DNA from: Chloroflexota bacterium
GTDB lineage: Bacteria > Chloroflexota > Dehalococcoidia > Lucifugimonadales > UBA3495
NCBI GenBank assembly: GCA_028875055.1
Contig: JAPPGG010000072.1
Span: forward strand, 51,032 to 115,031
Direction of reading: 5' to 3'
DNA length: 64,000 nt
Each line of letters opens with the position of its first letter. Position 1 is the first letter of the stretch. This document shows, piece by piece, positions 3,749 through 40,503 of this stretch. The notes under the pieces were generated by a model. The model was not told the DNA's origin. It saw only the letters and a program-made list of their open reading frames with translations, and searched no databases. A program made the translations under genes and the position numbers.

Positions 3749-4567
3749 ATGCCTGAACTTCCTGAGGTAGAGAATGCCCGGCGGATTCTGCTGCGCGCGG
3801 AACTGCCGGGCAGTACCATTACCAGGGCCCACGTAAGCTGGGCGCCCACCGTCAAGTTCCCCTCCCTGGAAGACTTCGTGCTGGGCCTGCCCGTCAAGCG
3901 GGTAGAGACGGTTGAGCGCCGTGGCAAATACCTCCTGCTGCCCCTGGACACCGGGGAAACCTTCATAATTCACCTGGGTATGACGGGCGGCCTCACCATT
4001 CAACCTGCCGCTCGCGAGCTGGAACCCATGGTCCGCCACCATTTCGACCTGGACGACGGCCGCAGCCTCTGGTTCCGGGATCCCCGCAAGTTCGGCCACC
4101 TGTGGCTGACCGAAGAGCCCCACTCGGTATTGCCAGCCCTGGGTCCTGAACCCCTGTCCCAGGAATTCACGGCGGACGTCCTGCGGGAAAGGCTGGGACA
4201 GCGGGTTGCCCCGGTAAAGGCGCTGATGCTGGAACAGTCCGTCATTGCCGGGCTGGGCAATCTCTACGTGGACGAGTCCCTTTTTCTCGCGGGAATCCAT
4301 CCCGCCCGGAGCGCCTCAGACCTGACCCCATCAGAGTTTGCAACCCTGAGAGACTGCATTGTCCAGGCGCTGAATGCTGCTCTTGCCTTCTACGACCGGG
4401 CCCGGGAAGAACACTGGCCCGACCCTCCTTCGGCCCTCCATACCTGGACTGTTCCCCGCAAGGAAGGTAAACCCTGCCCTCGCTGCGGCAACCCCATCGC
4501 GACCATGCGTATCAGGGCGCGCGGCACCTTCTTCTGCCCCCACTGCCAGCCCCCTGCACAAGATTAA
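3749..4567 (+). CDS. mutM: Formamidopyrimidine-DNA glycosylase (Fpg/MutM)
   Basis: Starts MPELPEVE, with the catalytic N-terminal Pro after Met removal. C-terminal zinc finger CPRCGNPI...CPHCQ. Confidence 0.95.
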   Translation: MPELPEVENARRILLRAELPGSTITRAHVSWAPTVKFPSLEDFVLGLPVKRVETVERRGKYLLLPLDTGETFIIHLGMTGGLTIQPAARELEPMVRHHFDLDDGRSLWFRDPRKFGHLWLTEEPHSVLPALGPEPLSQEFTADVLRERLGQRVAPVKALMLEQSVIAGLGNLYVDESLFLAGIHPARSASDLTPSEFATLRDCIVQALNAALAFYDRAREEHWPDPPSALHTWTVPRKEGKPCPRCGNPIATMRIRARGTFFCPHCQPPAQD

Positions 4568-4674
4568 GCAGGCCCAGACATCCCTTACTCAATCGAGGGG
4601 TAGGGTCAGGATGGAGCTCACTCTCGCCAATTGCTACCCCACTGCAACCGAAATCGGCTTGAGCTCCCCCGCAG

Positions 4675-4703
4675 TTGACGCTAACAATGGCCTTGCATAC
4701 AAT
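4675..4703 (+). promoter_or_regulatory. Candidate promoter for the fusion gene at 4846
   Basis: TTGACG (4675-4680), 17-nt spacer, TACAAT (4698-4703). This leaves a leader of about 140 nt. Confidence 0.4.
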
Positions 4704-4845
4704 TGATTCGATGTCTGGCAAGCGCCCTTCTTGGCCCCATATCCGGGGCAGGGAATGCCAATGTGACAAGAATGTGGAGGCCTGAAAAGGCTCTAATCGG
4801 TTGCGGGTCTCATATCCGCCAACCATCAGCGGAAGGTGATTGTTA

Positions 4846-6906
4846 ATGGCTGACTACAGAAAGCATGAGGCGCAGGAGTGGGCGTGGGGGTTCCTCAAAG
4901 ACCAGTGGACCACCATCATGACTCCTTTTACTCCCGATAACCGCATTGACGAGGACGGTCTCCGGCGAAATATGCGGTACATTCAGAGCCTTGGCACCAG
5001 GGGCGGTGGCTGCACCTGGGGCATGGGCGAATTCTGGAGTCTCACCTTTGAGGAGCGCACTCGGGTGATGGATGTGGTCGCGGAGGAAGGCGCCGGACGC
5101 TGGGGAATCGCCGCCCACGTTACCCACACTTCCGTCAAGGATATGCTGGCCCTGGCCGACCGGGCCGAGGCCGACGGATTCGACCTCCTGGTGGTTGCGC
5201 CTCCCTACATGGTCGCCAAGACCGAGGAAGTCGTCTATGACTACGTCAAGACCCTGGCCGACCACACCAACCTGGCCATTATGTTCTATAACTCCCCCCA
5301 GTTTGGCATCGTGATGAGCCCCCAGGGACTGAAGCGTCTCTGCCAGATCCCCAACGTGGTGGGCGTCAAGGAAGCCAGCTTTAATCAGCAGACTTCCATC
5401 GAGACCCACCTGCTGGTGGGCAAGCAATCCATCATCAGCACGCCTGACGAGTGGATATACCCCAAGGCGAAGGAGCTGGGTTTCCACCAGCAGGTGATGT
5501 TCGCCAACACTTCCGACTGGCGCTTCGACACCCCCGAATGCAACAACTACGTCCAGTTCATCAACCGCGCCAGCCGGGGCGACCTGGACCTGGACTTCTA
5601 CAACGAGCACCTCAAGGACCTAAAGGCCCTTTCCGACAAATGGTGGGGGGGCACCGTCAAGAAATCCGGCGGCGTTCTTCCCGCTCCCATGTGCAAGTAC
5701 TGGGGCGAGCTTATGGGCATGGCCGGCGGCCACGTCCGTCCCCCGCTGATGCCGCTGACCGAGGACGAGAAAGCTGAACTCAAGCGCGAGCTAATGCCCC
5801 TGATTCCCCGCCCCCGGACTGCCAGCGTTCCCGCCCAGGCCAGGACTCACGCGCCCTGGTTGAACGAGAGCGTCGGCAGCGGCGCTGAAGGGTCCGGCAT
5901 GATGCTCCTGGTAAGCGTTCAGGACATGCCCGAGGCCCTGGAAGCGGACCGGGGGGGCGCAGACATTATTGACGTAAAGAACCTGCAGGAAGCCCTGGTA
6001 GGGTCCGGCCACCCAAACCTGGTGGAGGAAGTCCGACGGCGCATCCCCGCCCACAAACACGTCAGCGTTACCCTGGGTGTCGTACCGGATCAGGCGGGCA
6101 CGGTCGCCATGGCCGTCAAGGCGGCCGGTATGCTGAACGCCACTTCCGTCAAGGTAGGCTTCTGCGAGGCCACCTACGAGTCCGCCGTTGAAATTCTCCA
6201 GGGCGCCAGGGAAGCGCTGAGGGGCTACGACACCAAGCTCATCGGCTCCCTCTTTGCCGACAACCATCTCTTCAAGGGCGGCCTTGACCCGGACCTGATG
6301 GTCAAGCTGGCCATTGAAGGTCAGTGCGACGGCTTCCTGATTGACACCCTGACCAAGGACGGCCGCAACCTCTTCGACTTCATCCCCGAGACCCGCCTGC
6401 GGGAAATGGTGATGGAGGCCAAGCAGGCCGGCCTCAGCACCGCCCTTTCCGGCCACCTGAAACTCGACAATCTGGACGAGCTGGCCCGCGTGAACCCCGA
6501 CATCGTTGGCGTGCGCGGCGCCGTCTGCTCCAGCGGTGAACGCGACCGGGCCGTGGCCTGGGAAGCGGTGGCCCACTTCAAGGAACAGCTCGATCTACGC
6601 AAGTCCGGCCAAATAGACGTTCGCAGGCAGCCCGTGGGCGGCAACGGGCACAGCAACGGCAATGGCCACCACGACGGCTGGGCCGTGGTTGACGGTCGGG
6701 GCAAGAACTGCGCCGGCGTAATCGCCGCCCTCAGCCGCCAGATGGACGATGACCGGGGCTCCTTCGTTGAGGCCATTCTCCACGACGCCCTCAACATCTA
6801 CGACGTCATCTACTGGGCGGAACAGGCCGGCCACAAGCTGCTTACCCAGCGCAAGGAGGACGATGGCACCCTCCGGGTGCTGATCCAGCCCTTCGGCAGC
6901 AAATAG
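4846..6906 (+). CDS. Three-domain fusion: DapA-family class I aldolase (N) / MfnB-like DUF556 4-HFC-P synthase-like domain (middle) / TusA-SirA-like domain (C)
   Basis: ATG at 4846 is preceded by GGAAGGTGA; the track's TTG at 4840 is less likely. The N domain has APPY and GVKEAS (Schiff-base Lys) DapA motifs. From about 5899 the protein reads MMLLVSVQD...GGADIIDVKN...DIVGVRGAVCS, collinear with archaeal MfnB. After a G/N/H-rich linker it reads VDGRGKNCAGV...LRVLIQP, a TusA-like fold with CPxP degenerated to CAGV (Cys codon 6709-6711). Confidence 0.85.
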   Translation: MADYRKHEAQEWAWGFLKDQWTTIMTPFTPDNRIDEDGLRRNMRYIQSLGTRGGGCTWGMGEFWSLTFEERTRVMDVVAEEGAGRWGIAAHVTHTSVKDMLALADRAEADGFDLLVVAPPYMVAKTEEVVYDYVKTLADHTNLAIMFYNSPQFGIVMSPQGLKRLCQIPNVVGVKEASFNQQTSIETHLLVGKQSIISTPDEWIYPKAKELGFHQQVMFANTSDWRFDTPECNNYVQFINRASRGDLDLDFYNEHLKDLKALSDKWWGGTVKKSGGVLPAPMCKYWGELMGMAGGHVRPPLMPLTEDEKAELKRELMPLIPRPRTASVPAQARTHAPWLNESVGSGAEGSGMMLLVSVQDMPEALEADRGGADIIDVKNLQEALVGSGHPNLVEEVRRRIPAHKHVSVTLGVVPDQAGTVAMAVKAAGMLNATSVKVGFCEATYESAVEILQGAREALRGYDTKLIGSLFADNHLFKGGLDPDLMVKLAIEGQCDGFLIDTLTKDGRNLFDFIPETRLREMVMEAKQAGLSTALSGHLKLDNLDELARVNPDIVGVRGAVCSSGERDRAVAWEAVAHFKEQLDLRKSGQIDVRRQPVGGNGHSNGNGHHDGWAVVDGRGKNCAGVIAALSRQMDDDRGSFVEAILHDALNIYDVIYWAEQAGHKLLTQRKEDDGTLRVLIQPFGSK

Positions 6907-6943
6907 TTCCTGTACCGGTTCTCTCAGTTAACCAATCAGAGCA

Positions 6944-6977
6944 TTCACCCCTGCTTCCCACCGGGCGCAGGGGTGAA
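6944..6977 (+). terminator. Stem-loop downstream of the fusion gene
   Basis: TTCACCCCTGC (6944-6954) pairs with GCAGGGGTGAA (6967-6977), giving an 11-bp stem and 12-nt loop. The following T-tract (CACTTT) is weak. Confidence 0.45.
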
Positions 6978-7016
6978 CACTTTCAGGCCGCTACGCCGGC
7001 AGGGTGGTGAAGAGTA

Positions 7017-7637
7017 ATGGCTACCGAAGAACGCTGGAGCATGAAGGGCGACTACTTCGAGAACTGCAACTGCGAAATTCTTTGCCCCTGCATCGTGGGA
7101 GGCGGCCCCGCTGTCCCGACGGAGGGTCACTGCGACGTCGCCTTTGCCTTCCACATCCAGGAGGGCGAGTACCAGGGAGTTGCCCTGGACGACCTCAATT
7201 TCATCGTGGTGGCCTACACTCCAGGCATCATGGGCGACGGCGACTGGACCCTGGCCAACTACCTGGACGAGCGGGCCGACCAGTTCCAGCGCGCCGCCTT
7301 CGGGCGCCTGATGTCCGGTGAAATCGGCGGCCCCTTCGAACGCTGGATGCGCCTGACATCCAACTATCTGGGAATCAGCTACTGCCCCATCTCCTTTACC
7401 GCCGACGGTCACCAGCGCAGCGTCAGGATTCCCGGCATCATTGACTTCAACGTCAAGGGACTGGTCGTCGGTCGCCGTACTGAAGCCATGACCCTTATCA
7501 ACACCGGCCACCCGGTCAGTTCATCCCTGGCCCTGGCCGAAGGCGCCAGCAGTGTCTATACCGACCACGGAATGACCTGGGACAACACGGGAAAGAACGG
7601 CCACTACTCAACCTTTGAGTGGAGCTGGCCCCGATAG
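7017..7637 (+). CDS. DUF1326 family protein
   Basis: The N-terminus W.MKGDYFENCNCEILCPCIV matches the Cys-rich DUF1326 signature as I recall it. Length is about 206 aa. Confidence 0.75.
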   Translation: MATEERWSMKGDYFENCNCEILCPCIVGGGPAVPTEGHCDVAFAFHIQEGEYQGVALDDLNFIVVAYTPGIMGDGDWTLANYLDERADQFQRAAFGRLMSGEIGGPFERWMRLTSNYLGISYCPISFTADGHQRSVRIPGIIDFNVKGLVVGRRTEAMTLINTGHPVSSSLALAEGASSVYTDHGMTWDNTGKNGHYSTFEWSWPR

Positions 7638-7679
7638 AAGCGGGGAAAAGCAGGCAGGAAAAGGGAGGTATTACCCCGA

Positions 7680-7880
7680 ATGTGCCGGAGCATAAAGAAA
7701 CTGCGAGCTCAGGAGCCCTCCGCCATGCCTGAGGATGTGAGCGCCGCTGCCCTGCAGTTTGTCCGCAAGATCAGCGGCTATCGGACACCTTCACGCGCCA
7801 ACGAGGCCGCCTTTAATCTGGCCGTCGCCGAAATCTCGGTTGCCTCGGAGAAGTTGCTGGCCTCCCTCGAGAGCCGTTAA
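7680..7880 (+). CDS. DUF2277 family small protein
   Basis: MCRSIKKLR...AAALQFVRKISGYRTPSRANEAAFNLAV matches the conserved MCRNIK...AALQFVRK(I/L)SG pattern. 66 aa. Confidence 0.75.
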   Translation: MCRSIKKLRAQEPSAMPEDVSAAALQFVRKISGYRTPSRANEAAFNLAVAEISVASEKLLASLESR

Positions 7881-7899
7881 ACGCGCCCTGACCCGCGGG

Positions 7900-8322
7900 T
7901 CAGGAGACATTCCCCCCGTAGAGGTGGTCCGGTACCACAATAATCGCCGAGCGCCGTTGCTCCACCATGGCCCGGTCGTATTCTTCCCAGTCCGGGTGTT
8001 CCGTGGCGGCGGCCGTGCGGAACACGTCCCTCAGGGCCAGGCGCAGTTCATCGGCGTCGGTGTTATCGGCCGACAGCAGTCGCGCCGAACCCTGCAGCAC
8101 GATATACGCCGACCAGTTCTCCCGCGCCACCAGCAGTGTGCACTGAGGGTTGCGGCGCAGGTTCTTCAGCTTGGCCCGGTCTTCCGTGGTAGTGAATGCC
8201 ACCCCGTCCTGCAGCGGCCCGCAGGTGATGATGCTCATCTGCGCCGAACCGTCTCTCCGGAAGGTGGTCAGAACGCCCCTCCGGTTGTCAGCCACGAATT
8301 TCTTCAGGTTGTCGTCCAGCAT
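7900..8322 (-). CDS. PPOX-class (pyridoxamine 5'-phosphate oxidase-like), probably F420/FMN-dependent, oxidoreductase
   Basis: 140 aa. GVLTTFRRDGSAQMSII...AKLKNLRRNPQCTLLV is typical of split-barrel PPOX family proteins. Confidence 0.7.
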   Translation of the reverse strand: MLDDNLKKFVADNRRGVLTTFRRDGSAQMSIITCGPLQDGVAFTTTEDRAKLKNLRRNPQCTLLVARENWSAYIVLQGSARLLSADNTDADELRLALRDVFRTAAATEHPDWEEYDRAMVEQRRSAIIVVPDHLYGGNVS

Positions 8323-8359
8323 AACCTCTCCGCTTGTTCCTGTTTTTTCCGGCAGCGAC

Positions 8360-10951
8360 TCAACTCAGCCAGAAGGTGGAACCGTTGATGTCCTTCTGCA
8401 CTTCAATGCGCACCGGGAACATATCCTTTAAATCGTCCAGGTGGGTAATGACAATAATCTTGTCAAAGTCGTCCTCGATGGCGCTGATGACATCCAGGAT
8501 TCTCTCCCGCCCGGAAGCGTCCTGGGTACCAAATCCCTCGTCAATGAACAGCGTTGGCAGGGGTGCGCCCGTGCGCTGGGACAATACCCGGGACAGCGCG
8601 ATGCGCAGCGCCAGGTTAACCCGGAAGGCTTCTCCCCCGCTGTACATTTCGTAGGCGCGCGACCCCAGTTCGTCGCTCACATTGATTTCCAGGGTCTCGA
8701 TGGGTTCGCCAGCCCCGGAGCGGCGTTCCCGCTGGGTCTCCAGCTTTACGTGCATGCGGTTATCGGTCATCCGACCCAGCAGCAGGTTGGTCTCCTCTTC
8801 CAGGCGGGGCACCACAGTCTCAATCAACATGGCCTGGACTCCCTGGCGGCCAAAGGCCCCCACCAGTTCCTGGTAGATGCCCTGCGCTTCCTGGGCCTGC
8901 TTCTGCTCCCCCTCGGCCCTTTCTATTTCGTTCCCCAGGTTCCTCGCCTGCTCCAGCCGGCCCTCCAGCAGGCCCTTGTTGGCCAGGGCCGCCCGCTGCT
9001 GGTTATCCATAACCTCCATGGCCTGGGAAGTCTGTGCCAGTCGGGCCTCAACGCCGGGCAGTCCGGCAATGGACTCTTCCGCTTCGGCAATTGTCCGGTT
9101 CAACTCCTCCAGGTCCTTGCTCACCCTCTCGAGCAACTCCGAGCCCTGCTTCTGGGCGTTCCTGTCCAGCGCCAGCTGCCTTTGGGCCGAATCTAACCTG
9201 ACCTTCAGCTCCCCAAAGGGCTGAAGCTTCCTGACCGCTTCCACAGTCTCGCGGTAGGTGGCCTCATCGTAGCTTAACCTCTTCAGCTCTTGTTCAATTG
9301 TCTCCAGCTGAGACCGTTCGCTCTGGGCAAACGTTCCGTCATTCAGGCGAGCGGCCATCGCGCCAAGCTGGGTTTCCGCAGTTGCCAGTTCTTCCCCGGC
9401 TGCCCGCGCCGCCAGCAGCTGGGTCTCGGCTCGGGCCGCCTCTTCCCGCCACCGGTTCGACTCCGCGGCGAGCGCCCGTTCCCGGTTGTCCAGCTCTCGT
9501 TCCAGCTCCTTTTTTTCCTTTTCCAGGCCCTGCAGATTGCTGCGATTGGCCCGGTACAGCTCTCGTTTCTCCGCGATTTCCTTCTCGTAATTGCGGGCCA
9601 GGCGGGAGCAACCATCCTCGCTGAGTGGCGACAGGCAAAGGGGACATACCACGCTGTCGGGGTCGGCGCCGCTCAGGAGGCCCAGTTTCTCCTTGATTTG
9701 CTCCCCCTCCGCCTGGTAGCGGGCTGCCACTGATTGTGCTTCCCCCACTCCCGTGGCCAGCCCTTGGATTCTGTGCCGCAACTCGGCCAGTCCCGGCTCT
9801 GCGGATGTCACCTCTTCAAGCCTTTCCCGACACTCATTCAGCAAAGCGTCCAGAGCCGCCTCGGACGCTGCCACCGGCGACAGGCGCTCCTTTATTCGTC
9901 TCCGCAGTTGGCGGGCCTCGGTTTCCAGCCGGGTTTTTTCCACCTCGATGACTCGGCTCAGCTCCCCCTGCTCCCGGCGGAGGCTTTCGAACTCCTGCCG
10001 GGTCGCTTCCATGCTGGCAAAGCGATTCTGCCCCGCCTCAAGCTCAAGCGCGCCCGCTTCAATCTGCGGAGCCTTTGCAATCAATGCCTCGTGGTCCCTG
10101 ACCCGGAGTTCTGCGGCCTCGATTTCCGACTGTATTCTTCCCGACTCCGCGGTTGCCTGCTTCAGGCGGCTGCGGCGTTCACCCAGTTCCGATTCCTGCT
10201 GACGCAAAAGCGTAAGGTTGTTTCTCAGGTCCTGGGCGTCCCTTCGCAAGGGTTCCAGGCCTGCCTCCAGCTCCGCCAGTTGGCGGTTAACCGCTGCCAG
10301 TTCCGCCGCCGGGTCGCCGATGGCTTCCAGGTCCGCCTGCATCTGCTGGACCCGGCCCAGGAGGCGGTCTGCGTTGCTTCGCGACTCTACCAGCCGTTCC
10401 CTCGCCCGGGCCTGGAAACGGTCATAGGCCTCCAGGCCAAGGATGGAAGCCAAAAGGGCCTTCCTTTCCGCCGGGGTCTTGCTGGTAAATTCGTCGGCCC
10501 GGCCCTGCATCAGAAAGGCGGAATTGATGAAGGTCTCGTACTCCATCCCCACCAGTTGCTCTATCCTGGCCTGGGTTTCCCGCACCGAATTGCCGGAAAC
10601 AACCTGGGTGGCATTCCCGTCTTCGGACACCACCATCAGCTGCAGGTCCGTGGCCCCCTGGCGCCGCCGACCACCACCCCGCCGCCGGCTGCGAATGGCG
10701 CGGAATCGGCCATCCCTGGTCAGGAATTCCAGCTCCACCCTCGCGTCATCGGCGCCGTAGGACACCAGGTCATCCTGCACCTGTCCTCGCGCCTGTCCCC
10801 ACAGGCACCAGGTAATGGCGTCGAGCAGGGCGGACTTGCCGTGGCCGTTGTCGCCGCACAAGCAGGCGACGTGAAGACCGGTAAAGTCCAGGACCGGCAC
10901 ATTTTCCCGGTAGGAGAGGAAGTTCCTGATGTTGAGCTTGATGGGGATCAA
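8360..10951 (-). CDS. sbcC: SbcC/Rad50-family SMC-like ATPase
   Basis: N-terminal Walker A (GDNGHGKSALLDAI), long coiled coil and a central CPLC zinc hook. C-terminal signature YSGGEAF, Walker B LFIDEGFG and ITH. Confidence 0.9.
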   Translation of the reverse strand: MIPIKLNIRNFLSYRENVPVLDFTGLHVACLCGDNGHGKSALLDAITWCLWGQARGQVQDDLVSYGADDARVELEFLTRDGRFRAIRSRRRGGGRRRQGATDLQLMVVSEDGNATQVVSGNSVRETQARIEQLVGMEYETFINSAFLMQGRADEFTSKTPAERKALLASILGLEAYDRFQARARERLVESRSNADRLLGRVQQMQADLEAIGDPAAELAAVNRQLAELEAGLEPLRRDAQDLRNNLTLLRQQESELGERRSRLKQATAESGRIQSEIEAAELRVRDHEALIAKAPQIEAGALELEAGQNRFASMEATRQEFESLRREQGELSRVIEVEKTRLETEARQLRRRIKERLSPVAASEAALDALLNECRERLEEVTSAEPGLAELRHRIQGLATGVGEAQSVAARYQAEGEQIKEKLGLLSGADPDSVVCPLCLSPLSEDGCSRLARNYEKEIAEKRELYRANRSNLQGLEKEKKELERELDNRERALAAESNRWREEAARAETQLLAARAAGEELATAETQLGAMAARLNDGTFAQSERSQLETIEQELKRLSYDEATYRETVEAVRKLQPFGELKVRLDSAQRQLALDRNAQKQGSELLERVSKDLEELNRTIAEAEESIAGLPGVEARLAQTSQAMEVMDNQQRAALANKGLLEGRLEQARNLGNEIERAEGEQKQAQEAQGIYQELVGAFGRQGVQAMLIETVVPRLEEETNLLLGRMTDNRMHVKLETQRERRSGAGEPIETLEINVSDELGSRAYEMYSGGEAFRVNLALRIALSRVLSQRTGAPLPTLFIDEGFGTQDASGRERILDVISAIEDDFDKIIVITHLDDLKDMFPVRIEVQKDINGSTFWLS

Positions 10952-16053: not shown

Positions 16054-16896
16054 ATGATTGGCGGCAGGGCCCCCACAGCGGGGCACACTTACAGCGTCCC
16101 CGAGTTGCAGGCTATGGCCAAGGAACTTCGGCGGGACATAATCCAGACCATCTATACCGCCGGCAGTGGACATCCCGGCGGTTCTCTTTCGGAATTGGAA
16201 ATACTGATTTCCCTGTATTTCCGGGTTATGCGGTACGACCCCGAAAACCCCGGCTGGGCCGACCGCGACAGGTTCATCCTCAGCAAGGGTCACGCCTCCC
16301 CCGGCTTTTATGCCGTTCTTTCTCGTGCCGGTTACTTTCCCAGGGAGGAACTGGCTACCTATCGTCAGCTGAACAGCCGGATCCAGGGCCATGCGCACCC
16401 AATGACACCCGGCGTGGAAATGAACTCGGGTTCTCTTGGCATGGGTCTGTCCTTCGCCCTGGGTTGCGCCCTCGCTGCGCGCTTGGACGGCAAGGACTAC
16501 ATGGTTTACGCCCTTCTTGGCGACGGCGAGTGCGACGAGGGCGAAATCTGGGAGGCCGCCATGTCCGCTGCCCACCACAAGGCTACCAACCTGGTGGCCA
16601 TTGTGGACCGCAACCGCATTCAAAACGACCGGTTCACCGACGACGTTATGACTCTCGACCCCCTGGACAGGAAATGGCGAGATTTTGGCTGGCGTGTTTT
16701 TGAGACCGATGGCCACGACCTGCCGGCGCTGCTGGACACATTTGAGAAGACCCAGCGTCGCCGCACCAGGCCGACGGTAATCATCGCCCACACGGTCAAG
16801 GGCAAGGGGGTCAGCTTCATGGAAAACAACCCCGGCTTCCACGGCCGGGCTCCCAACGCCGACGAATATCAGAAAGCACTGGAGGAACTGGCCTGA
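16054..16896 (+). CDS. tkt: Transketolase, N-terminal (TPP-binding) subunit
   Basis: SGHPGGSLS, GHASP and GDGECDEGEIWEA motifs. 280 aa, typical of split transketolase. Confidence 0.92.
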   Translation: MIGGRAPTAGHTYSVPELQAMAKELRRDIIQTIYTAGSGHPGGSLSELEILISLYFRVMRYDPENPGWADRDRFILSKGHASPGFYAVLSRAGYFPREELATYRQLNSRIQGHAHPMTPGVEMNSGSLGMGLSFALGCALAARLDGKDYMVYALLGDGECDEGEIWEAAMSAAHHKATNLVAIVDRNRIQNDRFTDDVMTLDPLDRKWRDFGWRVFETDGHDLPALLDTFEKTQRRRTRPTVIIAHTVKGKGVSFMENNPGFHGRAPNADEYQKALEELA

Positions 16897-17843
16897 TGGT
16901 GGCGCAACGGAAAATGGCCTCAACCCGCCAAACCTATGGCGAAACCCTGCTGGATATGGCCGATTCCTTTCCTGACATTGTGGTGCTGGGTGGCGACCTG
17001 AACGTCTCTGTCTTTACCCACCTTTGGCGTGACAAGTACCCCGAGCGGTTCTTCGATTTCGGACCGGCTGAGCAGAACCTGGTCGGAGTCGGCGCCGGCC
17101 TGGCCGCCAATGGCAAAATTCCCTTCGTAAGCACCTTCAGCGTGTTTGGCGTAGGGCGCCCGTTTGACCAACTGCGTGTTCTGGTCTCCCAGGGCAACCT
17201 GAACATGAAGCTGGTCTGCACCCACGCCGGCATTCTTACCGGGGAGGACGGCATGTCCGCCCACGGCATCGAAGACCTGTCCCTTATTTGTTCCCTTCCC
17301 GCTTTCACCGTAGTTTCGCCGGCCGACTCCGTTGAGACCGTACAAGCCATCAAGACTGCCGCCAGCACTGAGGGTCCCTTTTACATCCGGCTCTCCCGGG
17401 CGGCTACCCCCGTGGTGCACGAGGAGGATTACCGGTTCCAACTGGGGAAAGCGGAGGTAATGCGCGAAGGTTCCGACGTAACCATCTTTGCCACGGGCGT
17501 AATGGTTTCGGTAAGCCTGGACGCCGCCGATATGCTGGCCGCCCAGGGTGTGGAGGCGCGAGTGGTGAACATTCACACCCTGAAGCCGGTGGACGAAGAG
17601 GCAATAGTTGCCGGGGCCAGGGAGACCGGCGCGGTGGTTTCCGCTGAGGAGCATTACTTTCACGGCGGGCTGGGCAGCATAGTGGCCCAGGTGGTGGGTC
17701 AGAACCAACCGGTACCGGTGGAAATGGTTGCCCTGCAGGGTTACAGCGAGTCGGCCAGGGCCGAAGAACTTATGGTCAAGTGCGGCCTTACCCCCGAGAA
17801 GGTCAAGGACGCTGCCCTCAAGGCAGTGGCCCGCAAGAAATAG
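16896..17843 (+). CDS. tkt: Transketolase, C-terminal (pyrimidine-binding) subunit
   Basis: Start overlaps the upstream stop (TGATG). FDFGPAEQNLVGVGAGLA and HAGILTGEDGMSAHGIEDL motifs. Confidence 0.92.
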   Translation: MVAQRKMASTRQTYGETLLDMADSFPDIVVLGGDLNVSVFTHLWRDKYPERFFDFGPAEQNLVGVGAGLAANGKIPFVSTFSVFGVGRPFDQLRVLVSQGNLNMKLVCTHAGILTGEDGMSAHGIEDLSLICSLPAFTVVSPADSVETVQAIKTAASTEGPFYIRLSRAATPVVHEEDYRFQLGKAEVMREGSDVTIFATGVMVSVSLDAADMLAAQGVEARVVNIHTLKPVDEEAIVAGARETGAVVSAEEHYFHGGLGSIVAQVVGQNQPVPVEMVALQGYSESARAEELMVKCGLTPEKVKDAALKAVARKK

Positions 17844-17901: not shown

Positions 17902-18071
17902 TACCATTTGCCCATTACCCTCAATTGCGTCGATTCACGCTTCAGGGAATGGGTCCACAAAAGAACCGGAGCAGGTCAATTACCTGCCCCGGTCTTGTGC
18001 TCTCGTGCAAATGGCGCCATCTGATGCAAAGGCAGCCGGACCCGCCTTCTCGTACAACTCTTCGGCCCCGC

Positions 18072-19352
18072 TTACTCTCGCACCTGCCCGTCCCCGATAA
18101 TTACCCACTTGTAAGAGGTCAACTCGGCCAGGCCGAGAGGGCCCCGCGCGTGGAACTTTTGAGTGCTGATTCCCACTTCCGCGCCCAGCCCCAGCTGGCC
18201 TCCGTCGGTAAACCTGGAACTGGCGTTTACGATTACCGCCGCCGCGTCCACGTCGCGCTGAAAGCGGCTGGACGCATCCGCATCGCTGGTAATGATGGCC
18301 TCCGTGTGCCCCGAGCCGTACGTGTCAATGTGCTCCAGGGCCTCATCCAGCGAGTCCACAATCTTGATGGCTGCCGTCAGCGACAGGAACTCCTTGCCCC
18401 AGTCCTCTTCCGTGGCCGGCTGGGTGTTCAGGCCAGGTTCCGGTCCCAGGATACTCAGGGCCCGGTGGTCGCAGTGCAACTCCACGCCGGCATTCGACAG
18501 GTTGCGCGCTATGTCAGGCAGGCAGCCGGGCGCAACCTCGGAATGGACCAGAACCGTGTCAAGGGCGTTGCAGACCGTGGGTCGCTGGACCTTTGCGTTG
18601 AACACTATCCTGGCAGCCTTTTCCAGGTCAGCGGTCCGGTCAACGTAGGTATGGCAAACGCCCACGCCGCCGGCCACGACGGGCATGGCCGCGCTGGCGG
18701 CGACGAAGTTGATCAAGCCTGCCCCGCCCCTCGGTACCAGCAGGTTGATGTATTCCTTCATCTGAAGCATGGTGTCAACCAGTTCACGGTCAGGGTTATC
18801 CACGTATTGAACGACATCCGGGTTGATACCGGCTTCGCCGATGGCGCGGCGCAGCAGGCCAACCAGGGCGAGGTTGGAGTGCAGGCTTTCCCGTCCGCCC
18901 CGCAGCAGGCAGGCGTTTCCCGACTTCAAGGTCAGGGCCGCAATATCCACGGTGATATTCGGGCGGCTCTCGTAAATGCTTCCAATGACGCCCAGGGGTA
19001 CGCGCCGGCGCTCCACTTCCAGGCCGTTTGCCAGGGTCTTCCGCTCAATGACTTCTTCCACCGGGTCGGGCAGCTCCGCGATGGCCCTGACATCCCTTGC
19101 CATGCCCAGGAGACGGTCAGGAGTAAGCAGCAGGCGGTCCAGCATGGCATCGTCCATTCCGCCGGCCTTGGCCGTGTCGTAGTCCTTGCGGTTGCCCGCG
19201 AGGATCGGTTCCTGCTCCGTCTCCAGCCCGTTGGCCACGTTGAGGAGGGCCTGATTCTTCATCTCGGTGGACGTTCGGGCCAGTTGTTTTGCTGCCGCCT
19301 GGGCCGTTTTGCCCTGTGCCAGCAGCGCGTCTTTGTCTGTGGTGGTTGCCAT
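18072..19352 (-). CDS. proA: Glutamate-5-semialdehyde dehydrogenase (gamma-glutamyl phosphate reductase)
   Basis: 426 aa. ALDH-fold ProA sequence (YESRPNITVD, CNALDTVLVH, HTEAIIT). Confidence 0.95.
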   Translation of the reverse strand: MATTTDKDALLAQGKTAQAAAKQLARTSTEMKNQALLNVANGLETEQEPILAGNRKDYDTAKAGGMDDAMLDRLLLTPDRLLGMARDVRAIAELPDPVEEVIERKTLANGLEVERRRVPLGVIGSIYESRPNITVDIAALTLKSGNACLLRGGRESLHSNLALVGLLRRAIGEAGINPDVVQYVDNPDRELVDTMLQMKEYINLLVPRGGAGLINFVAASAAMPVVAGGVGVCHTYVDRTADLEKAARIVFNAKVQRPTVCNALDTVLVHSEVAPGCLPDIARNLSNAGVELHCDHRALSILGPEPGLNTQPATEEDWGKEFLSLTAAIKIVDSLDEALEHIDTYGSGHTEAIITSDADASSRFQRDVDAAAVIVNASSRFTDGGQLGLGAEVGISTQKFHARGPLGLAELTSYKWVIIGDGQVRE

Positions 19353-19402
19353 GTGCCCTCCTGGGGTTCTGTCAAGAGCGTTCAGCGGACCGGCCGCCGG
19401 GG

Positions 19403-20596
19403 TCAGATGAGAACCAGGTTGTTCCGGTGCACCACTTCCTGCCCGTAATGGTACCCAAGAATGGAGGTAATTCCATCCGACCGGAATCCACGAATCCGGG
19501 AAATATCCTCGGCGTCGTAGTTGGCTATGCCGCAGGCGATGTGCCTGCCCGGTTCATCAACTATATAGACAATGTCGCCCCGGTGAAAGTCTCCCCGAAC
19601 TCCCCTTACACCGGCGGGCAGCAGGCTTACGTGACGATTCAGCAGGGCATCCGCCGCCCCGCCGTCAACTTCGATCTCACCCCACTGCGAGTCCTTGACC
19701 CGGCTCAGCATCCAGCGTTTCCGGGCCTCCAATTTCCCCCCAGCCGGCTGGAAAAATGTGCCGATTCCTTCCCCTTTGGCCGCCCGTATAAGGGCGTCCT
19801 CTTCCCGCCCGCTGCAGAGCACCATGGCAATGCCGGCGGAGGTAACCAGCCTGGCTGCGTCAATCTTGGTCGGCATTCCTCCCCGCGCCCAGGGGTTCTG
19901 ATGCTCTCCTACCATGGCCTGAATACGGTCGTCCACCACATCCACTATGGACACCAACTTCGCGTCCGGGTTGCGCCGGGGATCGGAGGTATAAAGCCCG
20001 TCGATGTCGCTCAAAATCACCAGGAGATCGGCGTCCACCAGGTTTGCTACCAGGGCAGAGAGGCGGTCATTGTCGCCGAATACCTCCCCTATTTCGTCCA
20101 CGGCCACCACGTCATTTTCGTTTAGTATGGGGACAACGCCGATATCGAGCAGGGCGGTCAGGGTGTTTCGAACGTTGAGGTAGGGCTGCCGCTCCGCCAG
20201 GTCATCGATGGTAAGCAGGGCCTGGGCTACGTGCACTCCGTGGGCGCCGAACATTTGCTGGTAGGCATGGATGAGCCGACCCTGGCCTATGGCTGCCAGG
20301 GCCTGTCTCAGGGGAATGTCCCGGTCTGCCAGCTGAAGGCCGGCCTGCGTCAACTCGTCGCGGCCGGCCGCAATTGCTCCCGAAGTGACAAACAGGACCT
20401 CCACACCTTCGTGCTGGCGCAGCTGGCAGATCTGGCGGACCAGGTCCTCCATCACCGGCAGGTTCAACCCGCCGTTGCCCTGGATGTCGGTGAGCACTCC
20501 GGTGCCCACTTTCACCACTATCCGCCGATAAGACAGGCCTTCCGCGCCATTCACGTCGGGGGCTTGCGCGTCTTGAAATTTGTGGGGATTGTTCAT
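19403..20596 (-). CDS. proB: Glutamate 5-kinase with C-terminal PUA domain
   Basis: RIVVKVGTGVLT, the amino-acid kinase fold, and a PUA-like C-terminus. Lies upstream of proA in the same orientation. Confidence 0.95.
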   Translation of the reverse strand: MNNPHKFQDAQAPDVNGAEGLSYRRIVVKVGTGVLTDIQGNGGLNLPVMEDLVRQICQLRQHEGVEVLFVTSGAIAAGRDELTQAGLQLADRDIPLRQALAAIGQGRLIHAYQQMFGAHGVHVAQALLTIDDLAERQPYLNVRNTLTALLDIGVVPILNENDVVAVDEIGEVFGDNDRLSALVANLVDADLLVILSDIDGLYTSDPRRNPDAKLVSIVDVVDDRIQAMVGEHQNPWARGGMPTKIDAARLVTSAGIAMVLCSGREEDALIRAAKGEGIGTFFQPAGGKLEARKRWMLSRVKDSQWGEIEVDGGAADALLNRHVSLLPAGVRGVRGDFHRGDIVYIVDEPGRHIACGIANYDAEDISRIRGFRSDGITSILGYHYGQEVVHRNNLVLI

Positions 20597-25528: not shown

Positions 25529-25604
<76 letters not shown>

Positions 25605-25821: not shown

Positions 25822-27207
25822 ATGAGTGACTTGCCCCATATCCTCAGGCTTTCCGACTCTTTCTCCCAGCGTTCGGTTGCCCTGCGGCTCTCTGCAGAGG
25901 ACGCGTCCCTGCCGCTCAGCCATCTGATTGTCCGGTACCTGAAATGTCCTGACGGGCCCGACCTGCTGGCCAGGGAAGCAATTGCCCAGGAATCCCTCGT
26001 CACTCTTCAGTCGCTGCAGGACCTGGTTTACGCTTGCGATGACCTGGGTAGATTAACTGAGCCCTACTCGGGAGTCTCTTTCCGGCAGGATGACGCCCGA
26101 ATCGAAGTGAGTGAAATCCCGGGGTATTCCGAGATAGTAGTTGACGGGTCCAGCGCCAAGCTGACTGAGATTGTAATTGACCGCACCGATGCCGGTTACG
26201 ACAGGAACTGGGCCGGGTTTCATAGCCGTCGGTGGAACAATGCTCCCGGATTCTTTGAAGAGTTCGTGCTTGATTCGCTGGAGGAGGTCTTTGGTCCCCG
26301 GGAGGCTGGGCAGATTCTTCAACTCGAGAGCCAGGCGAGCATATTGGCCCTGGTGGAGACGCTTGCCAGGAAAATATGGGACAGCGAATTCGAAAATTAC
26401 TCCCGCTTTACCGGCCGGAAGCTGCTGTTCAAGACCGGCGACGAGACCGTCAGTAACATAGCTGCCGGCGCCGGCGGCATCTGCACCGAGAAAGTCCAGG
26501 CCCTCAGATTCCTCACCGACCACTACGGAATCCAGTCCGAGTACGTGATTGGCGGCGACGGCGCCCGTGACCCGGTCCCCGTCGAAAGGCTGAGGGAGAT
26601 GCTTCGGACCGGCGATTTCAGGTTTGCCCGGCGTCATATGCGCTACTGGCGGCACGCGGCCCTGCTTTACCAGATCGACGGGCTGCCCCTTCTCGTGGAC
26701 GCCACCAACGGCAACATCCCGTTCCTTTTCCTTAAGGGACCCGAGGCGGAGAGGCTCCTGGGGTATGAGCGCAAGCCATCCGTCCCCGTCAGGATGGTGG
26801 AAGCTGAGGAACAGTACTTCTACCACCGAGTCCCCCAGGACATTCCGCAGAACCTTTTCTTCGCCATGGAAAGCTGGATAACCGATACCGATATGGTCCA
26901 GGTTTTCGAGAATGAACTGGGCCTGTTTCTTTCCAGCGACTACTACGTCACTCCCCTACCCTATCGGACCCAGGCCGAATACCAGCGGCTGGCCGACGAA
27001 TACCAGGTCATCGCCGCCAGGGCAGGTTACCGGTGCCAGGCAAGCCCGCGGTGGACCCTGGACGGCGAGCCAGGTGAGGCCTTCTGCAAGTCCCACCCGG
27101 AAACTGCATCCCGGATATTGGACGCCAGGGAACATTTGCTGCTCAGGTATAATGGTTGGGACATTCCCGGTCACGACGCCGGCCTGGTTGTCATGGAAAT
27201 GGCCTGA
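25822..27207 (+). CDS. Hypothetical protein (461 aa) with possible transglutaminase-/papain-like Cys-His-Asp arrangement; first gene of the SecA-paralogue operon
   Basis: GGGAG RBS 6 nt upstream. GGICTEKVQALRFL (Cys221), RHAALLYQIDG (His278) and LLVDATNG (Asp293) have spacings of 57 and 15 aa, as in transglutaminase-core proteins. I recognise no other family. Confidence 0.7.
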   Translation: MSDLPHILRLSDSFSQRSVALRLSAEDASLPLSHLIVRYLKCPDGPDLLAREAIAQESLVTLQSLQDLVYACDDLGRLTEPYSGVSFRQDDARIEVSEIPGYSEIVVDGSSAKLTEIVIDRTDAGYDRNWAGFHSRRWNNAPGFFEEFVLDSLEEVFGPREAGQILQLESQASILALVETLARKIWDSEFENYSRFTGRKLLFKTGDETVSNIAAGAGGICTEKVQALRFLTDHYGIQSEYVIGGDGARDPVPVERLREMLRTGDFRFARRHMRYWRHAALLYQIDGLPLLVDATNGNIPFLFLKGPEAERLLGYERKPSVPVRMVEAEEQYFYHRVPQDIPQNLFFAMESWITDTDMVQVFENELGLFLSSDYYVTPLPYRTQAEYQRLADEYQVIAARAGYRCQASPRWTLDGEPGEAFCKSHPETASRILDAREHLLLRYNGWDIPGHDAGLVVMEMA

Positions 27208-27236: not shown

Positions 27237-30200
27237 ATGATTGCCAGCGACACTAAGCCACTCTACGCCCCGGCAAGACCAGGCGCCCTTACGCCTGGGG
27301 CCCTGCTGCGGCAGTGGCTGAGTGGTGTTGTTCATCCGGCTGCCAATTTGGTGTCACACCTTCGCGGGCAATCGCGGCAAGAGCTAGTGAAGAAAGTTCG
27401 CCAGGTTCGCCTGGATATGGCCCTGGAAGACTGGTCCGACTCGGACCTTCGCCGGCAAATGGACGACCTTCGGGCCGCCTTTTCTGAAACTCCAGGCCCC
27501 TCTGCCCGCGTCAATCGCCTTGTAGTCGCCTTCGCCATTGTCGATGAAAGTATTCGCCGGCGCGTGGGCTTCGGGCGTTTATTCAGCGACTCGGGCCGGT
27601 CCCCCGCTTTTGAGGCCTGTTTCGAGGCCTCGCAGGGACGTCGGAGCCTCAATGAGCTTTCGCCAGATGAAAAGACCGTCGCCGAAGCGATGATGCGGGC
27701 GGGCGCAGCAGGGAATGGTCGTTACGGTATTGACCTGATGTTCCCCGCCGGCCTCTACCGGGCGCTGGCTTCGGTGGACACCTCCGGTTCACTGCGCTTT
27801 CAGCCCACCGACGAGCAGCTGCTGGCGGGTATGTACCTGCTGGACAACCGGGTTGTAGAAATGCAGGCCGGCGAGGGAAAGACCGTTGCCATTGCTTTCG
27901 CCGCCATAGCCCACGCGCTTGGCGGACGGCATGTTCACATAATCACCGCCAATGATTACCTCGCCGACCGGGACTGCCGGCTACTGGCCCCGGTGTACAG
28001 GTCCCTTGGATTCTCTGCCGGCGCCATTCTGGAAGCCCTGGATGGCGCGGAGCGCAAGGCCGCCTACCAGAGCGATATTGTTTACGGCACCCTGAGGGAA
28101 CTGGGTTTCGATTTTCTTCGCGACCGACTGGCTGCCAGGGTCGAAGACGTGGTGCAGACCCCCCTTGGGGTGGCCATAGTGGACGAAGCGGACCAGGCGC
28201 TGGTGGATGAAGCGGACACTCCCCTCATTGTTTCCGGCCCACCGCTGCCCCAGTACCGTCCCTGGGCCCGCGTTCAAAAGGCGATCGGCGAAGTTGTCCA
28301 GGAGCAGCACAGAATCGCCGGGCAATATCTGCAACAGCTCAACGGCCTGGCCCCCGACGACAGAGCGTATGGCCGGTTGCTTTGCCTGGGGCTGCTTGCC
28401 AACCCCCACAGCAAGGACCTGCAGCGTCTTGCCCGCAACAATCCAGGTTCCTGCCGGCGGGGCCTTGGGGAACTCTACCCCGACGGCGGGGACAGTCCCG
28501 ACATGGCCCTCATCGCGAATCTGCTCTATGTCGTTGACCTCCACGAGCGATTCGTTACCCTCACCGAGAAGGGCGTGGACTTCCTTTCAAGTCGCCTGGG
28601 CGAATTCTGTCCCGCTTCCAACCACGGAGGCAAAGGTGGCGGGGACTCTGACCAGCTTACGAGGAGAGCGTCCCGGCAGCTGGCCCTGGCCAACCAGGTT
28701 TACCAGTCCCTCCGGGCCAACCTGCTCTTCGAAAGGGACGTCGATTACATCGTTTTCGATGACGCCGTCATACTGCTCGACCGGAACACCGGGCGTACCA
28801 GGCCCGATAACACTTACCGGTTCGGCCTGCAGCAGGCGGTGGAAGCCCGCGAAGGCGTAACCGTCCATCCCGAGAGTGAAACCGTGGCCCAGATTTCAGT
28901 CCAGGACTTTGCCGGGCGCTATCAGTTTCTTGCCGGCATTACCGGCACGGCCACCGCTGCCGCCAATGAGTTCAGGCGCCGCCACTCCCTGGACACCAAC
29001 GCAGTTCAACCCACTCAACCGTCCCAGCGTGTGGACTTGCCTTCCAGGATATTTGCTTCAGAAAGGCTGAAAATCGAGGCCATAGTGGAGGAAGTATCCT
29101 GGTGCCGGCGCATGGGCCGCCCGGTACTGGTGGGGACCGGTTCGGTCGGTTACTCCCTCGAAATCAGCCGGGCCCTCCGCGACGCCGGAATACACCACCG
29201 GGTCCTCAATGCAGTCCAGTCCCACCAGGAAGCGGACATTGTGCGCACTGCCGGCGCCCCGGGTGCGGTCACCGTGGCCACCAATATGGCTGGCCGGGGA
29301 ACCGATATCGTCCTCGATTCGGACGTGAACGATGTAATACTTGCCCGATGGGCTGACTTCGTTCTGGAAGCGGCCGCCGAGCAGCGGTTGCCCCTGGCAA
29401 TAAAGTGTTGCTCCAGGGCGGAGGCCGACCTTCTTGAGTCGGCCCTGGCAGATTCGCCTCTTATTTCAGTCTCTAGAGTCGGCGCACCCGGGGCGGAAGC
29501 CCTCCTGGTAACTGACCCACCCAGCCGGCTAGCCTGCAACCTGGACTCTGGCTTGTTCCATTGGGAATTTGGCCTGGGTCTCCACGTCATAAGCGCCGAG
29601 TTCAACCGGTTTCCCAGGGTTGCGCTGCAGCTCAGGGGACGCAGCGGACGCCAGGGTCTGTTTGGTTCAACCCGCTCAGTACTTTCCTGGGAAGATCCCG
29701 CTCTCCTCTCCCTGGGCCAAAGCCGCCCGGCCTTCCGGCGCTGCCAATATGAAGATGCCAGCGGCCGAGCCTGCTGGGAAGGTCAGGCTGTGGAAAGATA
29801 CATCGCCCGGCGGCAGGAGAACGCCGAGCAAGAGGCGGCTCAGCGCAGAAGCGTTGCCGGCGACTTTGCCTCCCTGATTGACGCCCAGAGTTCCGCCTAT
29901 TACGAGCTGCGCCAGGAACTCCTTTCCGGTCCTCGGGTCCTTGAGCGGTTGCCGGGCATTCTTTCAGACCGGGGTTCCCGCCTGGTACTGGAACATTTTC
30001 CCAACCTTGATACCGCCAGCTATCGTCAGCGCTATGAAGCCCTGATAAATGACGCCCGGCAGCGTTACGGGATAGTACTGGAAGAATTGTATGGGCTGTC
30101 ACTGGCCGCACTGCCTGCCGAAGTAGCCGCCAGAATGCGGCAGGCCGTGGACGAATTGGAACAGAGTCGCGGCCCCAGGGAGTTCAACTCACTGGTCCGG

Positions 30201-40217: not shown

Positions 40218-40503
40218 GAATTGCCTCCTTCCTGATGCTCTGATTGACCATGCTCGATTCGGGGGACCTGTCGAGTGGGCTGACCGCCGGACTGCGTGGT
40301 ACCGCAGGCTTTTTGGCCAGGGAGCCGGGCGAATTGCCGCCTATACTACCCCGGCTGCCAGCGGCGGGCAACGGCGACGGCAGCCAGTTAGCAATTGAGG
40401 GCCGGCGACCCGCCAGAAAACGGTTAGCCCTGATGAGAGAACTTCGTCGTCTTTGCCAGCTGGCTGATATACTGGAACAAAGGCAACTTGGAGGTCCAGC
40501 GCG

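Follow-up and report, generated by a model that had tools for sequence, protein, structure and literature searches.

What would a single polypeptide make that joins two aldolase-type barrels to a small domain with the fold of a sulfur carrier? This question is raised by an open reading frame (ORF) at positions 4846 to 6906 of a 64,000-nucleotide stretch from a Chloroflexota bacterium (contig JAPPGG010000072.1, positions 51,032 to 115,031), which is referred to here as the window. From N- to C-terminus the encoded protein resembles the dihydrodipicolinate synthase (DHDPS)/N-acetylneuraminate lyase (NAL) family, the methanofuran enzyme MfnB and the sulfur carrier TusA. The same three parts are co-located obligatorily across domains of life, and as far as searched the three-part module is undescribed. 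We tentatively propose that it is a self-contained three-component enzyme, which would act on a triose phosphate and a 2-oxo acid with the help of a tethered Cys carrier and whose product is probably not methanofuran; this is a plausible reading, short of a likely one.

Domain Architecture and Promoter of the Fusion Gene

The ORF contains no internal stops across its 686 codons (translation of 4846-6906, forward strand) and ends in a stop codon. The gene and the parts of its product are laid out as follows.

4675..4703, forward strand: fusion-gene promoter, sigma-70-like, TTGACG-17-TACAAT, followed by a 5' untranslated region (5'UTR) of ~140 nt (window 4675-4845)
4846..6906, forward strand: three-domain fusion, a complete ORF of 686 amino acids (aa) plus stop
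4846..5805, forward strand: DHDPS/NAL-family domain, residues 1-320, a predicted class I (Schiff-base) triosephosphate isomerase (TIM) barrel (PF00701, AlphaFold, Foldseek)
5806..5898, forward strand: linker 1, residues 321-351, variable (mean top-residue frequency 0.65) and predicted to be disordered
5899..6600, forward strand: MfnB-family TIM barrel, residues 352-585, resembling the synthase of 4-HFC-P, i.e. 4-(hydroxymethyl)-2-furancarboxaldehyde phosphate (PF04476; Pfam, PDB, Foldseek)
6601..6678, forward strand: linker 2, residues 586-611, of varying length and predicted to be disordered, with the Gly/Asn/His-rich GGNGHSNGNGHHDG at 598-611
6679..6903, forward strand: TusA/SirA-fold domain, residues 612-686, beta-alpha-beta-alpha-beta-beta

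AlphaFold, run with a 74-sequence alignment, predicted three confident domains with a predicted local distance difference test (pLDDT) of ~96, 85 and 77 from the N- to the C-terminal one. Values below 50 are restricted to residues 325-350 and 594-610, i.e. to both linkers. Linker 2 is poorly conserved, and its junction corresponds to a gene boundary in Thermoplasmata. The three domain calls of the earlier note on this DNA proved right by Pfam, AlphaFold and Foldseek, and all the motifs that it quoted are present, namely GVKEAS (Lys175), GGADIIDVKN (Lys378), DIVGVRGA and C-A-G-V (Cys622), as is the linker segment that it cited.

The promoter is the sole promoter-like site within 4400-8500. Its TTGACG and TACAAT/TACACT boxes are kept in 9 of 11 orthologous upstream regions, where the remaining spacer is divergent, and the sequence of the 5'UTR differs between clades. 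No riboswitch or other Rfam family was found in this 5'UTR, as 4450-4950 gave chance-level matches only; the only Rfam match above gathering score was a tRNA at 25529-25601. GGAAGG stands before the ATG at 4846, and both this start codon and a ribosome-binding site of the GGAGG type are kept together with the promoter in orthologues.

The DHDPS/NAL-like N-terminal Domain

Residues 22-316 match PF00701 (DHDPS) with 110 bits (E 1e-31; Pfam), and the N-terminal domain superimposes on DHDPS structures in Foldseek with a template modelling (TM) score of ~0.87 and a root-mean-square deviation (rmsd) of ~3 Å. Alignment to the DHDPS structures 3flu and 2yxg places the Schiff-base Lys at Lys175 in GVKEAS (codon 5368-5370) and identifies Tyr148 in FYNSP as the equivalent of Tyr133. 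In E. coli DHDPS, Thr44/45 and Tyr107 serve in the catalytic triad and Arg138 binds aspartate semialdehyde. All of these are replaced here: Thr44/Thr45 by Gly59/Met60 (GTTGE to WGMGE in the 3flu alignment), Tyr107 by Met122 (PYY to PYM) and Arg138 by Phe153 (YNVPGRT to YNSPQFG). The dapA equivalog model TIGR00674 is not reached either, with 84.5 bits against a cut-off of 206.15. Because of these replacements and the missed cut-off, the domain is evidently not DapA, and its earlier description as a complete DapA-type synthase does not hold.

The KdgD-type model PRK03620 scores slightly above the dapA model with 90.9 bits, yet below its own cut-off of 278, and the domain stays under every NCBIfam cut-off. 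GVKEASFNQQ, MFYNSPQFG and GEFWSL are unchanged across 80 orthologues. The domain represents a subfamily of its own, whose stand-alone members come from archaea and bacteria and from several phyla. Since it shares the fold, the Schiff-base Lys and the Tyr133 equivalent with the DHDPS/NAL family, it most likely forms an imine/enamine with a 2-oxo acid.

The MfnB-like Middle Domain

Residues 354-578 match PF04476 (4HFCP_synth) with 177.9 bits against a gathering score of 22.4 (E 3e-52; Pfam). The sequence match to PDB 4rc1 has an E-value of 1e-39, and in Foldseek the domain superimposes on this structure of MJ1099/MfnB with TM 0.93 and rmsd 1.6 Å at 37% identity. Asp376, Lys378, Lys436, Asp500, Lys504 and Arg566 align with Asp25, Lys27, Lys85, Asp151, Lys155 and Arg217 of MJ1099, of which we take Asp25, Lys85 and Asp151 to be numbers of essential MfnB residues, and all six positions are invariant across the 80 orthologues. 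Two Lys and two Asp are essential in MfnB and Lys27 forms the Schiff base (PMC6604932), while Lys155 has been called catalytic and Arg217 conserved (PMC11365854). As the fold and all MJ1099 catalytic positions are retained, the middle domain most likely does Schiff-base chemistry on triose phosphates.

The MfnB equivalog models of NCBIfam are missed by far: NF002573 gives 179.7 bits against 341 and NF002575 gives 166.4 against 304, and the MfnB-like protein of the archaeal module (see below) reaches 216 bits against the cut-off of 341. The loop after the Schiff-base Lys reads KNLQEALVGS in the window and KNL[QKR]E..VGS in all module-associated members, whereas 41 canonical MfnB representatives have KN-x-x-E-G-x-LGA, mostly KNPxEG[SA]LGA; the protein P0161 is intermediate between the two loop types (KNPNEERMGA). 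The low equivalog scores and the altered loop mark the middle domain as a putative MfnB-family enzyme of a distinct subfamily. It had been described before as a complete MfnB homologue, which stands for family, fold and catalytic residues and fails for equivalog score and loop.

One alternative would be that the middle domain is MfnB in the strict sense and supplies the 4-HFC-P of a methanofuran or methylofuran-type cofactor in tetrahydromethanopterin (H4MPT)-linked C1 metabolism, with the other parts being accessory or unrelated. The conserved essential residues and the close fit to MJ1099 agree with this, the top NCBIfam matches are the MfnB equivalog models, and H4MPT and methanofuran genes have been reported for some Chloroflexi (PMC5020050). 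Apart from the missed cut-offs and the loop, however, the genomic context argues otherwise. Within 10 kb on either side in ~250 loci, genes of the mfnC, mfnE, mfnF, fhc, fae or mch type are absent from the conserved neighbours of the module. Its hosts are SAR202 bacteria, published as heterotrophic degraders of dissolved organic matter (DOM), and Thermoplasmata-type archaea in whose loci no methanogenesis genes were seen nearby, and nothing in the known mfn pathway compares with the strict linkage to DHDPS-like and TusA-like partners (PMC8141765). In the searchable literature, no paper was found on SAR202 together with methanofuran. The link to methanofuran and H4MPT-dependent C1 metabolism raised in the earlier note thus finds no support in these neighbourhoods or in the SAR202 literature, and we regard a plain MfnB function as unlikely.

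The TusA-like C-terminal Domain

Residues 614-681 match PF01206 with 24.7 bits in the whole protein, which is under the gathering score of 28.6 (Pfam). When isolated, the domain reaches 30.4 bits, above that score, and 8 of 8 diverse family members match. Predicted alone it has a pLDDT of 93-96 (AlphaFold) and an E-H-E-H-E-E topology by DSSP, and Foldseek places it with YeeD/TsuB, TusA, SirA-like proteins and YhhP at TM 0.74-0.82 and rmsd 2.0 Å. A profile search matched PDB 1PAV, 1JE3, 1DCJ and 3LVJ with the Cys aligned. Cys622 (6709-6711) takes the position of TusA Cys19 and aligns with the Cys that carries the persulfide in TusA, YhhP (CPEP) and Ta1170 (the motif in 1PAV is CPGP); it does not vary among the fused, split and archaeal forms of the module. 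The motif at Cys622 is C-A-G-V, not CPxP, and the family pattern is C-x-G-[VIA], with relatives having C-S-G-I, C-K-G-A, C-R-G-V, C-T-G-A or C-Q-G-I and Gly at +2 invariant. DGRGKNCAGVIAAL is unchanged in this domain across the 80 orthologues. The part was undervalued earlier, as its conservation equals that of the catalytic domains and it belongs to the module obligatorily.

The protein would thus carry two independent Schiff-base active sites of the class I aldolase type and a TusA-fold domain with an invariant Cys, as its alignments and predicted structure clearly indicate. By profile and fold, each part belongs to a known family, and none qualifies as that family's named enzyme.

Recurrence and Conservation of the Fusion in SAR202

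The earlier note had taken the fusion for an unusual one. It turned out to be the usual form of the protein over much of SAR202. Full-length versions (676-776 aa, 68-99% identity) occur in more than 500 protein clusters defined at 90% identity and in 196 GTDB species genomes, and all merge into one cluster, P0121, at 50% clustering. Many of the records are titled single chromosomes, and the named ones are all SAR202 cluster, Dehalococcoidia or Chloroflexota metagenome-assembled genomes (MAGs). The window likewise stems from a marine SAR202 bacterium. Within the set of fused SAR202 loci that was compared, the three-domain fusion is present in 80 of 80. In the 80 orthologues the mean top-residue frequency is 0.85, 0.89 and 0.90 in the domains versus 0.65-0.67 in the linkers, and neither the catalytic residues in the two barrels nor the TusA Cys vary, in contrast to the linkers. 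All three domains are, as these frequencies indicate, under about equally strong purifying selection.

One might suspect an artefact of assembly or frameshift, or that an ordinary dapA was joined to an unrelated gene by chance, as split versions occur in related lineages. However, the same in-frame fusion is found across the >500 clusters and 196 species genomes in independent assemblies, its linkers are in frame, variable and disordered by prediction, and an ordinary dapA would not lack the DHDPS-defining Arg138, Thr44/45 and Tyr107. This reading is already refuted by recurrence and retains practically no probability.

The Same Three Parts as Separate Genes

In pelagic SAR202/Dehalococcoidia from Tara and other ocean metagenomes, a DHDPS-like gene of 322-324 aa lies 12-44 bp upstream of a MfnB-TusA gene of 325-333 aa, and L170, L172 and L173 also have the DHDPS-like gene upstream of MfnB-TusA. 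The split SAR202 genes are 61-67% (DHDPS-like) and 60-65% (MfnB-TusA) identical to the domains of the window, with the exception of L086, a locus of 30% GC, whose DHDPS-like gene has 49%. The GC content of the split loci ranges from 30-42% in L086 and L088 to 61% in L173. Their neighbourhood is wholly different from that of the fusion and comprises recG, acn, pheA, trk and ubiD/A/X.

Outside SAR202, the DHDPS-like domain has its closest relatives in archaea (49-52% identity). A Thermoplasmata MAG has consecutive genes for MfnB-like (254 aa), TusA-like (94 aa) and DHDPS-like (325 aa) proteins, and this trio is found in 75 peat or soil metagenome loci, in which no further gene is conserved and contig ends account for the gaps in the count. 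Two loci have a convergent DHDPS-like gene, which faces a MfnB-TusA fusion in the archaeal L177 and separate TusA and MfnB genes in L178. Archaeal and bacterial parts share 50-60% identity in the barrels and 31% in TusA. Altogether, five arrangements of the three parts, as genes or as fusions, occur across Bacteria and Archaea whose genomes have 30-69% GC, with TusA directly 3' of MfnB in every arrangement and no other universal neighbour. Because the three proteins are adjacent in five arrangements, both Rosetta-stone and gene-neighbour evidence apply, and it is strongly supported that they act together. The cooperation of the two Schiff-base modules that the earlier note suggested is strongly supported in the same way.

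A citrate-synthase-family gene adjoins the module in L177 (4475-7958) and L178 (195-3788), both archaeal-type and with differing gene orders, and in L086-L089, which are split SAR202 loci, an aconitase gene lies ~4.5 kb upstream.

Some archaeal and split loci led us to consider whether the module makes the head-group precursor of a prenylated quinone-like lipid cofactor. Stand-alone archaeal DHDPS-like orthologues (49-50% identical) are divergent from a MenA-like UbiA prenyltransferase gene in two lineages, one with L091 and L092 and one with L175, in the pairs listed here.

L091, 5058-6987: DHDPS-like gene divergent from MenA-like UbiA gene
L092, 5058-6987: DHDPS-like gene divergent from MenA-like UbiA gene
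L175, 4056-5990: DHDPS-like gene divergent from MenA-like UbiA gene (Thermoprotei)

A cluster of UbiD, MqnP-like UbiA and UbiX genes lies 6-8 kb downstream in split SAR202 loci, and UbiE-like methyltransferases are found at the edges of L091 and L177. Yet the prenyltransferase matches are weak (~100 bits against cut-offs above 260), the unrelated trk and pheA stand between the module and the SAR202 ubi cluster, and neither the fused form nor the trio of peat Thermoplasmata has such genes nearby. Moreover, there is no evident carbon arithmetic by which trioses and pyruvate would yield the known quinone head groups. A role in quinone synthesis therefore seems very improbable.

Another candidate, prompted by pheA in the vicinity of the split loci, was the synthesis of an aromatic amino acid of the archaeal type or of a ring like that of 3-amino-4-hydroxybenzoic acid (3,4-AHBA) from aspartate semialdehyde and a triose. 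It was rejected, as the Arg that binds the semialdehyde is absent and pheA lies on the opposite strand.

Gene Neighbourhood of the Fused Form

In the window the fusion gene is surrounded by ileS, fpg, a DUF1326 gene, sbcC and ffh. Operon partners were sought here, and the neighbours yield no pathway signal. The order rpsL-rpsG-fusA, (thiC), GYD, thiD, ileS, fpg, fusion is kept in the 80 fused loci. The thiC and thiD genes, which encode hydroxymethylpyrimidine phosphate (HMP-P) synthase and kinase, lie 4-8 kb upstream (thiD in 63 of 80 fused loci; L083-L085 46-3418), and their proximity probably reflects synteny, not function. Based on the conserved promoter of its own, the place among ileS, fpg, ffh and sbcC and the 68-99% identity over 196 species genomes, the module appears to be housekeeping-like in SAR202.

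The downstream gene depends on the clade. DUF1326 and DUF2277 genes follow the fusion in 21 of 22 loci of the clade with at least 85% identity, which includes the window, and are absent elsewhere. The DUF1326 gene at 7017-7637 (forward strand) starts 110 bp past the fusion stop with no terminator-like site between, and the small DUF2277 gene lies 3' of DUF1326. This pair, which lies at 12172-13015 in L081, may be co-transcribed with the fusion. In the clade below 85% identity, 51 of 58 loci have genes for a coxM/coxS/coxL-like molybdenum hydroxylase directly downstream on the same strand (L083-L085 12454-16400, with FAD_binding_5, Fer2/Fer2_2 and Ald_Xan_dh_C domains). The hydroxylase is absent from the clade of the window (0 of 22), from the split SAR202 loci and from the archaeal loci. 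Given 51 of 58 against 0 of 22, it was rejected as a universal partner; it may be a clade-specific one, which could oxidise an aldehyde or heteroaromatic product. Beside these cox-like genes, one SAR202 lineage carries DDE_Tnp_1, DDE_3 and IS66 transposases and a phage-integrase fragment (L083-L085 16419-21118).

The hydroxylase also bears on a catabolic alternative, in which the module would degrade a sugar acid or organosulfur compound from DOM: the DHDPS/NAL-like part would be a 2-keto-3-deoxy-acid aldolase or dehydratase, the MfnB-like part would handle the triose or aldehyde set free and the TusA-like part the sulfur set free. DHDPS/NAL members are often catabolic, and SAR202 is known for organosulfur catabolism. 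Models of the dehydratase KdgD outrank dapA among the DHDPS-type NCBIfam matches, and SAR202 has a broad DOM catabolism (PMC6306507). Against the position of the hydroxylase 3' of the gene on the same strand stands its patchy distribution described above, and the module has no conserved transporter, regulator, kinase or dehydrogenase gene beside it. A catabolic role is not known for enzymes of the MfnB family, and high conservation, core-gene synteny and an own promoter are atypical of accessory catabolic genes. A catabolic function of this kind is therefore doubtful.

The remainder of the 64 kb is ordinary core genome, including mfd, secA, proB and a split transketolase gene. The DEAD-like motor match of SecA (27237-30479, forward strand) extends over residues 48-580 for a profile of 290 positions, which points to an insertion of ~240 residues. 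The transketolase (16054-17843, forward strand) appears to be divided between an upstream ORF of 280 aa and an abutting ORF of 315 aa (16896-17843) with the pyrimidine-binding and C-terminal domains. Long predicted ORFs of 274-578 aa without a Pfam match at E <=1e-5 lie at 17925-19448, 25822-27207 and 30567-32409 (forward strand) and at 40114-41850 (reverse strand). Lastly, at 36153-38622 (reverse strand) the gene of a DUF3326 protein (450 aa) overlaps an Orn/DAP/Arg-decarboxylase-like gene, which may be an uncharacterised pair.

Proposed Function of the Module

How could two Schiff-base barrels and a Cys-bearing domain work together? In the three-component enzyme that we propose, the MfnB-like barrel would bind a triose phosphate, glyceraldehyde 3-phosphate or dihydroxyacetone phosphate, on Lys378. 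As every known essential MfnB residue is retained, it may then perform MfnB-type chemistry, i.e. isomerisation, phosphate elimination and aldol condensation, which would generate a reactive carbonyl or heterocyclic aldehyde. The DHDPS/NAL-like barrel would hold a pyruvate-like 2-oxo acid on Lys175 and condense or process it with this intermediate by aldol addition and dehydration. The TusA-like domain, on a floppy linker here and as a free 94-aa protein in archaea, could contribute a swinging carrier in the form of Cys622. Its most probable role, if ThiS/ThiG and BexX are taken as analogues, would be to deliver persulfide sulfur to the Schiff-base-bound intermediate; alternatively, it might shuttle an aldehyde intermediate as a thiohemiacetal. 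The end product would be a small metabolite, probably a heterocycle and possibly sulfur-containing, and probably a precursor of a cofactor or of another part of core metabolism rather than of methanofuran.

Several points weigh against this proposal. Firstly, the chemical steps each derive from family membership. Secondly, the Thr pair that binds the carboxylate of the 2-oxo acid in DHDPS/NAL is now Gly/Met, and therefore pyruvate is not assured as the substrate. Thirdly, the TusA-like domain is without the CPxP motif of proven sulfur carriers, and the conserved neighbours of the loci include no sulfur donor such as a cysteine desulfurase or a rhodanese. Sulfur transfer is therefore one option, and the domain could also be regulatory or structural. 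The AlphaFold model has no fixed inter-domain geometry (predicted TM score, pTM, 0.53) and hence gives no structural support for a channel. The channelled condensation towards a precursor of a furan-type cofactor, as suggested in the earlier note, is a conjecture. Lastly, some archaeal DHDPS-like orthologues (49-52% identical) stand alone, with no MfnB or TusA gene within 5-6 kb.

A more specific version of the proposed three-component enzyme would be a new heterocycle synthase that forms C-S bonds. The TusA-fold persulfide would attack a Lys-bound, triose-phosphate-derived electrophile on the MfnB-like barrel, and the DHDPS-like barrel would extend or cyclise the product with a 2-oxo acid. 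We consider this version rather improbable as it stands. If it were true, abundant deep-ocean SAR202 bacteria and Thermoplasmata archaea would be the makers of a novel small molecule or cofactor that contains sulfur, such as one of thiophene or thio-sugar-acid type.

Thiamin thiazole synthesis, suggested by thiD and thiC upstream together with a carrier-like domain and Schiff-base barrels, was considered as well and set aside as the main function. About 65% of SAR202 genomes contain thiG and thiE (PMC12236431), and therefore the module is not a simple replacement of ThiG. The thi genes are parted from the fusion by ileS and fpg and are absent from the split and archaeal loci, and the branched 1-deoxy-D-xylulose 5-phosphate (DXP) skeleton would be beyond class I aldolase chemistry.

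SAR202, of which 'Candidatus Lucifugimonas marina' is in culture, ranks with the most abundant bacterial lineages in the dark ocean and in sponges' microbiomes, and its core metabolism is mostly inferred from annotation. Public records label the proteins of this module 'dihydrodipicolinate synthase family protein', 'UPF0264 family/.../TusA-related sulfurtransferase' or 'MfnB', and for a conserved and core-like gene with its own promoter the first and the last of these labels are misleading. Recognition of the module guards against a false inference of lysine biosynthesis or methanofuran/H4MPT metabolism from such annotations. The combination of aldolase, MfnB and TusA was not described in any paper found in the searchable literature, in agreement with the earlier note, which was not aware of fusions of this kind; a match to 'DUF556' in PMC10364804 was in fact DUF5565 and gives no lead. 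With its five arrangements over Bacteria and Archaea, the full MfnB catalytic machinery and an invariant Cys-bearing TusA domain, all contained in one protein chain in the fused form, the module is a well-defined target. If its product is new, the MfnB-type chemistry of many reactions in one active site would reach beyond methanofuran, and it could expose an unrecognised metabolite or cofactor of globally abundant microbes.

Comparison with Known Systems

With the DHDPS/NAL family (DapA, NanA, KDG aldolases and KdgD; PF00701) the N-terminal domain shares the fold, the Lys of G-V-K-E-A-S and the Tyr133 equivalent. Unlike this family, it has Trp/Phe-rich motifs of its own (GEFWSL, PDEW, QQVMFANTSDWRFDTP) and an N-terminal helix, and unlike DHDPS it has Gly/Met for Thr44/Thr45, Met for Tyr107 and Phe for Arg138. 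The middle domain shares the TIM barrel and all known catalytic residues with MfnB MJ1099 (PF04476; PDB 4RC1/4U9P; EC 4.2.3.153). It differs in the loop, KNLQEALVGS instead of KNPxEG[SA]LGA, and in falling below the NCBIfam equivalog cut-offs, and it is always linked or fused to TusA-like and DHDPS-like partners. Its hosts are SAR202 bacteria and Thermoplasmata-type archaea, in a context without mfnC/E/F or fhc. Enzymes of the DHDPS type are typically tetramers, and MJ1099 is a hexamer.

The carriers TusA, SirA and YeeD (TsuB) (PF01206) have the same fold as the C-terminal domain, with the Cys at the start of helix 1 aligned. Unlike these, the domain has the motif C-x-G-[VIA] and is fused to or encoded directly 3' of an MfnB-like enzyme, and the module loci have no conserved IscS, rhodanese or DsrE-type partner in the vicinity. 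The thiazole synthase ThiG/ThiS and the 2-thiosugar system of BexX combine a Schiff-base TIM barrel with a protein sulfur carrier. By analogy, the module may share with them the pairing of a sugar phosphate, held as a lysine imine on a TIM barrel, with a small protein that possibly delivers sulfur. Unlike in these two systems, the putative carrier is of the TusA fold, i.e. of the Cys persulfide type, and not a ubiquitin-like thiocarboxylate protein, and the barrels come from unrelated families.

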